Source of the DNA: Escherichia coli
GTDB taxonomy: Bacteria > Pseudomonadota > Gammaproteobacteria > Enterobacterales > Enterobacteriaceae
Length of the DNA: 64,000 nt
NCBI RefSeq assembly: GCF_030384885.1
Contig: NZ_CP128613.1
Direction: 5' to 3' (one strand)
This document shows positions 55,767 through 57,053 of the stretch, piece by piece (positions within the stretch are counted from its first letter, which is position 1; each line of letters begins with the position of its first letter). The notes under the pieces were generated by a model. It saw nothing but the letters and a program-made list of their open reading frames with translations, had not been told where the DNA came from and did not search any database. The position numbers and the translations under genes were made by a program.

Positions 55767-56483
55767 ATGGAATGGTTAAGTGAGATTCGCACACTTCGGG
55801 AGAACGTACCTGTCGGTATCCAGGCTGCCAGGCGTTTGTTAGAGAAGACGGGTGGTGATGTTGATGAAGCCATTAAGTTGTTTCATATTGATCAAATCAA
55901 TATATTGACGGCAAAAGCAGACGTCAGTCATCAGGAAGCAGAGACTGTTCTGCTGGAGACAAACTATGATATTGCAGAAGCTCTACGGCGTATTGATGAA
56001 CAGCGCTATACACTGACGGAATTGATTTTGCGTAAAAATAAGGATACCGGAGATGCTTTAAGTAACATAGAATTAGCAATAGCATATGAATGGAATCTGA
56101 CATGCCAATTCTGGTTTGGTTTTAAGGCATTCCAGTCGCTACCTCCACAATTACAAGCCTTTATGCTGGTATGTGAATGGCGTAACTATTGGGGATGGGA
56201 AGGGCTGGATAGTGCGTTATATTATGAGATAGAAAATGTCCCCCAACAATTACAGGTAGTAGGCTTAGATGAAATGGCTGAAGTTATTGTTGTGGCGAGA
56301 AATCGTTATGATGAGTTAAGAGTACAAGGCAAAGACCATAATAACATCATTAAAGATGATAAATTTAAAAAATTTATGAAGCACTGTGAACAACTGGATA
56401 GTGAAGCCGACGCTATATTACTGCAATTTGTAAAGGATAATATTGAGATTTTCCCACGTCGCCACAACGGACACGATTTATAA
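55767..56483 (+). CDS. Hypothetical protein with two N-terminal UBA-like helical repeats and a Trp-rich C-terminal domain (possibly the yfbN-position gene)
   Basis: 238-aa ORF with AAGGA 7 nt upstream of the ATG and TATAAT about 40 nt upstream. Residues about 7-39 and 44-76 follow the three-helix pattern of EF-Ts N-domain / NAC-alpha UBA-like modules. No family assignment could be verified. Confidence 0.7.
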   Translation: MEWLSEIRTLRENVPVGIQAARRLLEKTGGDVDEAIKLFHIDQINILTAKADVSHQEAETVLLETNYDIAEALRRIDEQRYTLTELILRKNKDTGDALSNIELAIAYEWNLTCQFWFGFKAFQSLPPQLQAFMLVCEWRNYWGWEGLDSALYYEIENVPQQLQVVGLDEMAEVIVVARNRYDELRVQGKDHNNIIKDDKFKKFMKHCEQLDSEADAILLQFVKDNIEIFPRRHNGHDL

Positions 56484-57053
56484 AAAATTATCCCAAAATT
56501 GAACAGGCTTTTTATCTGCCTGATAATTTCCAGGTAATGACAGGTTGAATTCCGTTTTTATCCAGGATGACAGATCGTTGCCAGCACAGATGATATCGCT
56601 GTTATATATTGAATACACGGGATTACCACCAGTATACGAAGATGTAGACATATATCGATGCTTATATAAAAGAATCAAAACTGGGCATTGGTTTGAGATT
56701 TTATCAAAATGATCTTTACGTGAATCTAAATTAAGTAGTTTTTCTCCCCATATATCAAGCCAAAAATTGTTTTTCATAACATCGTATAATATACCATCTA
56801 AAGGAATTTTTAATGTCTGTTTCACCTCGCGTTCCATTTTTCCAGAGTGTAGAGTTTGCCGCCAGTGAATAAAACCTTCAGTCGTTGGCAAAGCATTATG
56901 CAAAAATGCTTTACAATCGAGTGGAAAGCGGAAACTAAAAGTTTGCTCAATGGCAGTAATCTCGGTCTCACTCAAACCTGCATAGAATATAATTCCTTGA
57001 GCTTTTAATTTGTTAACCAGAAATGTGTAGTCCAATGCTTTTTTCAATTTCAT
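56478..57053 (-). CDS. Hypothetical protein, SMI1/KNR4 (SUKH)-like by motif resemblance
   Basis: 191-aa ORF convergent with the 238-aa gene; stop codons abut (TTATAA). The N-terminal LSETEITAIEQTFSFRFPLDCKAFL resembles the start of SUKH immunity-family domains. AT-rich codon usage. Confidence 0.65.
   Translation of the reverse strand: MKLKKALDYTFLVNKLKAQGIIFYAGLSETEITAIEQTFSFRFPLDCKAFLHNALPTTEGFIHWRQTLHSGKMEREVKQTLKIPLDGILYDVMKNNFWLDIWGEKLLNLDSRKDHFDKISNQCPVLILLYKHRYMSTSSYTGGNPVYSIYNSDIICAGNDLSSWIKTEFNLSLPGNYQADKKPVQFWDNFL

Follow-up and report, generated by a model that had tools for sequence, protein, structure and literature searches.

The 64,000-nucleotide stretch of Escherichia coli DNA analysed here (the window) carries two convergent genes between nuoN and yfbM. 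The plus-strand gene, which is yfbN-like and encodes 238 amino acids, lies at 55767–56483, and the minus-strand gene, which encodes a 191-residue protein of the SUKH superfamily (SMI1/KNR4-like), lies at 56478–57053; both are supported by PGAP coding sequence (CDS) calls, by homologues and by AF2 models. E. coli 2013C-4282 (NZ_CP027579.1) matches the window at 100% across nuoL-nuoM-nuoN and yfbM-yfbL-elaD-rbn, and the RefSeq/PGAP annotation of that strain includes both CDSs with the same ends.

The plus-strand open reading frame (ORF) finishes with GAT TTA TAA, placing its TAA stop at 56481–56483, and the minus-strand frame also finishes with TAA, read on the minus strand at 56478–56480. The TTATAA junction at 56478–56483 is palindromic: read on the opposite strand, the stop codon of either gene is the TTA that encodes the last leucine of the other. 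The positions that an initial annotation of this DNA had given for both stops are correct, as the ORF calls and the PGAP ends agree. That annotation had also described the genes as separated by zero intergenic bases; this holds for the sense-coding parts, which meet exactly between 56480 and 56481, but with their stop codons included the two CDSs interpenetrate by 6 nt, in phase 123:321 and with crossed stops (the minus stop has the lower coordinates). The pair thus falls under convergent overlaps, defined by opposite-strand CDSs having one or more nucleotides of their 3' ends in common.

The gene on the plus strand is a yfbN allele whose product has 70% amino-acid identity to K-12 YfbN. Pairwise dN/dS among yfbN alleles is 0.2–0.35, with dS reaching 0.8. 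An AlphaFold model of the yfbN-like protein built on 12 homologues has a pLDDT of 87; in it, residues 1–90 are predicted to form tandem UBA-like three-helix domains and the C-terminal ~130 residues a helical domain with fold similarity to DMP19. The protein is acidic (pI 4.9), and the pI of 4.7 for the C-terminal domain is compatible with a DMP19-like acidic surface. A Pfam scan with this domain alone at E≤10 gave no DMP19/DUF4375 match, and the predicted resemblance to the Neisseria DNA mimic DMP19 (3wur; PMC3384305) and to eukaryote-type UBA domains is one of fold, with no match at the level of sequence. For a protein of unknown function this modelled UBA-UBA and DMP19-like architecture is a modest side result. 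YfbN homologues exist across phyla, with 30–37% identity in Bacteroidota and Ignavibacteria; one distant homologue immediately follows genes for a putative cyclase and a TIR-STING effector, which make up a CBASS-like system, and a second is flanked by DUF4279 and DUF4262 genes. K-12 yfbN is also named, in connection with an overexpression screen, alongside blockers of RcaT, the toxin of retron-Sen2 (bioRxiv 10.1101/2020.06.22.160242, legend of Extended Data Fig. 3).

The product of the minus gene matches PF09346 with 19.4 bits (E=0.0016), below the gathering cut-off of 25.4. An exhaustive HMMER search with the 191-residue protein recovered 1146 cluster representatives, of which 582 score at E≤1e-10; most are full-length proteins of ~190 aa with 30–44% identity. 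SMI1_KNR4 is matched by 30 of the 60 aligned family members at E≤0.01 (best 3e-6), and some match SUKH_5 or SUKH_6. The model of the protein has a pLDDT of 94 and shows the SUKH alpha/beta fold, PGAP names the orthologues 'SMI1/KNR4 family protein', and dN/dS of the gene is 0.34–0.5. On its predicted fold the protein is thus a divergent member of the SUKH (SMI1/KNR4) superfamily. An FW pair near the C-terminus is nearly invariant across the family, and the YfbN tail is likewise conserved. Searching PDB sequences with profiles of the two families returned nothing significant, and neither NCBIfam nor PADLOC gave a meaningful match for either protein or for YfbM.

Both genes are genuine, as judged from the PGAP calls, dN/dS of 0.2–0.5, large homologous families and confident folds. 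If one of the two ORFs were an annotation artefact there would be no true gene overlap, and it could be argued that neither protein attains a curated Pfam or NCBIfam cut-off and that most E. coli have no working minus gene (see below). This is scarcely credible against the selection on both genes, the hundreds of strong matches and the well-modelled SUKH fold of the 191-residue protein, and the spread of YfbN homologues across phyla together with a confident model of its own. We consider the artefact reading effectively refuted by the dN/dS values, the homologous families and the models.

The SUKH fold family is best known for toxin-immunity or inhibitor proteins. No gene with a toxin domain lies beside the SUKH gene in the window, where the neighbours are the yfbN-like gene and yfbM, and the gene context of two distant SUKH homologues showed no recognisable toxin neighbour. 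Compared with SUKH immunity proteins such as Bacillus subtilis YobK (2prv), the 191-residue protein scores below the Pfam gathering threshold, has a long helical insertion and lacks an adjacent toxin gene; moreover, SUKH immunity genes typically have an upstream co-directional toxin gene, whereas the neighbour here is convergent. The setting is thus not that of a polymorphic-toxin immunity gene. We found nothing usable in the literature linking DMP19 or DUF1877 to immunity proteins, so the idea of an 'immunity islet' here draws on the SUKH fold only.

The pair sits in a block of low GC content (34–42%, compared with 55–60% in nuo), and this block is a hypervariable, horizontally acquired islet extending from nuoN to yfbM, with hypervariability reaching as far as rbn. 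At megablast sensitivity, yfbN-type sequence is present in 978 of 5426 complete E. coli genomes, the other 4448 having neither gene; in O157:H7 nuoN is directly beside yfbM, 66 nt apart. Gene content differs by strain, with yfbP-yfbO-yfbN in K-12 (and yfbK further on), yfbO-yfbN-SUKH in others, and only yfbN-SUKH in the window strain. The pair also occurs in E. fergusonii, again overlapping by 6 nt, and the YfbN and SUKH proteins there are 98% and 96% identical to those of the window. We also note that the nuoM-yfbM block (52631–57708) is 98–99% identical to an E. fergusonii chromosome (CP079884; locus L021), and that nuoM and nuoN of the window are only 96–97% identical to those of K-12 and O157, a pattern of identities that suggests either inter-species recombination or a divergent lineage.

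Two ChIP datasets show association of H-NS with K-12 yfbN, which is flagged as part of a genomic island and is induced 2.8-fold by SlyA overexpression (PMC5797941). With H-NS bound to this region in K-12 and expression there poor, the pair is probably silent for the most part. A candidate plus-strand promoter for the yfbN-like gene has a perfect TATAAT -10 element at 55726–55731, 35 nt upstream of the ATG, and a weak -35; it was missed by the consensus scan.

Terminator-like structures were found outside the pair. The nuoN intrinsic terminator (55638–55673) is a hairpin of the A7-stem-T7 form with 16 pairs, six of them GC, and a T-run; it is bidirectional-looking, and it is the first terminator-like site that a minus-strand transcript would meet past the yfbN-like gene. 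On the other side, in the spacer between the start of the SUKH gene and the yfbM stop, a conserved long inverted repeat (57101–57155) folds with z-scores of -4.05 on the plus strand and -3.28 on the minus strand. In its inner stem 57109–57117 pairs with 57134–57142, with TTTTAAT next on the plus strand, and alleles whose spacers are only ~84% identical nonetheless preserve the stems. This hairpin is likely the yfbM terminator, and it is the first hairpin for plus-strand read-through from yfbN. A perfect TATAAT on the minus strand (57130–57135) also lies within it.

The initial annotation held that the two genes leave no space for a terminator between them, and we could detect none near the junction. 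A terminator and promoter consensus scan of 55400–57900 returned only the nuoN terminator and a single spurious site within yfbM. When the 120 nt following each stop were folded as RNA, the z-scores were -0.65 and +1.06, no better than shuffled sequence, and an inverted-repeat search at the junction found only AT-rich arms of 7–10 nt that are not conserved in K-12. Rfam at a permissive threshold gave only sub-threshold, generic hairpin-type matches, on the nuoN terminator. The accompanying structural claim is sound: with no terminator between the genes, the 3' ends of their transcripts must be complementary whenever both are transcribed.

We infer how transcription might end here from the composition of the read-through RNAs and from published convergent pairs. 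If both promoters fire, each RNA polymerase would read antisense into the partner gene. The antisense RNA has C/G ratios of up to ~3 at 130–260 nt downstream of the minus stop, and of ~2 at 210–300 nt downstream of the plus stop. Because these read-through RNAs are untranslated and contain stretches in which C exceeds G, Rho-dependent termination is plausible. Polymerase collision is reported to end transcription at convergent E. coli pairs, at sites that need a stem-loop (bioRxiv 10.1101/2022.10.23.513370). The overlapping bidirectional terminators of Ju et al. 2019, as described in the same preprint, resemble the present junction in being convergent pairs without a canonical intrinsic terminator at which collision is possible; however, they are said there to need a stem-loop in the nascent RNA, and the junction here has no significant one. 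Read-through would be stopped by Rho acting on C-rich, G-poor untranslated RNA, by polymerase collision, or by the flanking structures, namely the nuoN terminator on one side and the 57101–57155 hairpin on the other.

Overlaps of this kind are common in E. coli, of which 58 have been counted (Lillo & Krakauer 2007, PMC2174442). In that study intrinsic terminators were present at only ~20% of the genes in convergent overlaps, and short overlaps were explained by TTA and CTA being complementary to TAA and TAG. In the window itself, six intact convergent gene pairs are annotated, two of which overlap and four of which are separated by gaps of 32–58 nt. The second overlapping pair is yfcJ (plus) and flk (minus), which share TTAA at 6676–6679 and so overlap by 4 nt, each with TAA as its stop. 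The yfbN-SUKH junction is like these short overlaps in that the stop of each opposite-strand CDS is drawn from the complement of the other's 3' end, with TTA or CTA complementing TAA or TAG and with no intergenic terminator. It differs in being 6 nt long with phase 123:321, compared with the commonest 4-nt [CT]TA[AG] form, and in joining accessory, often-lost genes rather than core genes. The TTATAA hexamer is not enriched in the window (6 observed, 11.6 expected). A distant SUKH homologue on an unrelated metagenomic contig shares a 4-nt overlap with an unrelated convergent gene.

Comparison of the locus among strains shows that the [T/C]TATAA junction is kept in 17/17 Escherichia loci examined. 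Loci with two intact genes keep the overlap despite ~22% nucleotide divergence in yfbN, with the exception of one intact allele (P0004, 188 aa) in which a 1-nt insertion near the 3' end of the SUKH gene causes it to stop 4 nt before yfbN, so that no overlap remains. Deletion, frameshift or shortening has affected the minus gene in most E. coli that have yfbN, with the 3' end of yfbN unchanged; the minus gene is intact in two complete E. coli genomes and in at least one further genome (probably four). The 272-bp 'intergenic' region between yfbN and yfbM in K-12 (5715–5989 of locus L002, corresponding to 56484–56765 of the window) is the decayed 3' remnant of the SUKH gene, having suffered an 11-bp deletion, indels, and a ~440 bp deletion that removed the 5' half and the promoter region. 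It carries no pseudogene annotation. E. fergusonii and a few E. coli retain an intact copy of the gene that is wrecked in this stretch.

Approximately 960 complete E. coli genomes are of the K-12 type or similar, having yfbN with TTATAA and a decayed partner. Among partner-less alleles yfbN dN/dS is 0.23–0.25, the same as for alleles with the partner. Conservation of the junction is a matter of descent and of constraint on yfbN, since it persists at loci whose minus gene is defunct. A block of ~110 nt across the junction has diverged less than the remainder of the yfbN 3' half, which could point to an RNA-level function rather than protein constraint alone. Outside Escherichia, an enterobacterium whose nuoMN is 86% identical to that of the window has a 45%-identical YfbN homologue between nuoN and rbn, with no SUKH gene and with a normal GC-rich hairpin after its stop. 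Homologues in Runella, Chryseobacterium and an Ignavibacteria metagenome-assembled genome (30–37% identity) have no convergent SUKH neighbour.

The two genes also differ in how they diverge between alleles. Relative to locus L013, the window is 99.2% identical in yfbN, ~90% in the SUKH gene, ~85% in the spacer upstream of it and 99.2% in yfbM, such that divergence is ~1% in yfbN, ~10–15% from ~56490 to ~57200, and ~1% again in yfbM. Since divergence jumps sharply at ~56490 and at ~57200, the minus gene is a separate recombination cassette with a breakpoint beside the junction. The comparison with locus L009 shows 33–41 mismatches per 100 nt in the 3' half of yfbN and ~10 around and beyond the junction. 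Two hypervariable cassettes are thus adjacent, at 56050–56430 (the C-terminal half of yfbN) and 56490–57200 (the SUKH gene and its upstream spacer). The N-terminal 100 codons of yfbN are nearly invariant between allele classes.

These patterns raise the question of whether the conserved block at the junction serves mainly as an anchor for homologous recombination through which the yfbN C-terminal half and the SUKH cassette are swapped, the overlap being incidental and the locus resembling immunity-gene or inhibitor islets under diversifying selection. The breakpoints relative to L013, the contrast between the yfbN 3' half and the junction relative to L009, and a fold typical of immunity proteins are in keeping with such a role. 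Nonetheless we regard it as decidedly unlikely: the comparison covered just a handful of alleles, the neighbouring genes include no toxin, every dN/dS value is under 1, and constraint on the two C-termini, through the FW of the SUKH protein and the tail of YfbN, accounts equally well for the conserved block.

The initial annotation took the abutting stops to be a common signature of reciprocally regulated gene pairs. Convergent pairs regulated in this manner do exist, and for mscL/arfA antisense regulation has been shown experimentally (PMC10070815). That pair, in Enterobacterales, is likewise tail-to-tail with 3' complementarity, and its CDSs overlap in some species; its co-location is enriched across an order, whereas here the partner gene is dispensable and repeatedly lost. 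The likeness of the yfbN-SUKH pair to mscL/arfA is thus one of geometry and does not extend to co-conservation. The yfbN-SUKH pair could similarly be a selected module of cis-antisense or transcriptional interference, in which the two genes antagonise each other through an RNA duplex and RNase III or through collision, giving either/or expression. With no terminator between the genes and hairpins only outside them, full antisense read-through is possible, the overlap is kept in most loci with both genes intact, and collision-driven termination at convergent pairs adds to the mscL/arfA precedent.

The comparative data make a selected module of this type unlikely. The partner has been lost or broken in most yfbN carriers, with the yfbN TTATAA and dN/dS unchanged, so that in the ~960 genomes noted above yfbN is under unaltered purifying selection on its own, and lone homologues occur in the non-Escherichia enterobacterium and in distant phyla. 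A natural 1-nt insertion abolishes the overlap in an otherwise intact allele, and the two genes recombine independently as cassettes with a breakpoint next to the junction. The junction forms no stable stem-loop of the kind that the collision preprint reports as required at overlapping bidirectional terminators, and the region is H-NS-silenced in K-12. Partner loss, lone yfbN, the non-overlapping allele and the separate cassettes are not what pairing maintained by selection, as in mscL/arfA, would produce, and overlaps as frequent as those counted in E. coli, including yfcJ/flk in the window, lend no support to reading this one as a mark of reciprocal regulation.

A simpler explanation, which we consider likely, is that this is an ordinary compact tail-to-tail junction of two separately transcribed and independently evolving accessory genes. 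The TTATAA overlap would be an inherited accident of AT-rich sequence, in which such overlaps arise because the leucine codon TTA is the complement of TAA, and it would persist through ordinary protein-level constraint on both C-termini. Under this explanation we infer that some 3' complementarity and interference arise as by-products and not as a selected reciprocal switch. The locus would then be one more example of known convergent gene packing, in a dispensable and largely silenced islet, and as such it matters little. There is modest annotation value in the K-12 pseudogene remnant, the predicted YfbN architecture, the poly-G on/off alleles described below and the cassette mosaicism; the natural alleles, in which the partner is intact, frameshifted, deleted or non-overlapping, also constitute a ready series for the costs and benefits of convergent overlaps that lack a terminator.

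A poly-G tract in the SUKH gene (window ~56736–56743; C on the coding strand) varies in length within an allele group of 11 genomes, as loci L004 and L033–L036 show. With six G residues the gene is intact, encodes 190 aa and overlaps yfbN by 6 nt, and with seven or eight it is frameshifted and PGAP reports truncated products of 106–108 aa. This variation could be the result of slipped-strand on/off switching, decay, or homopolymer sequencing error. In a more elaborate scheme, the yfbN-like and SUKH genes would form a functional module in an orphan inhibitor or immunity islet beside elaD, the yfbN-like product being an acidic UBA-UBA-DMP19-like protein whose K-12 homologue has been linked to the blocking of a retron toxin, with the overlap enforcing exclusive expression by antisense or collision and with poly-G slippage as an extra switch that also changes yfbN output; we view this as very unlikely. 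The ElaD deubiquitinase gene is ~3 kb from yfbN, and ElaD is 389 aa in the window strain compared with 403 aa in K-12. Between yfbL and elaD, where K-12 has yfbK (a vWA-domain protein), PGAP annotates a 93-nt partial pseudogene fragment (59063–59155), which is probably a yfbK remnant.
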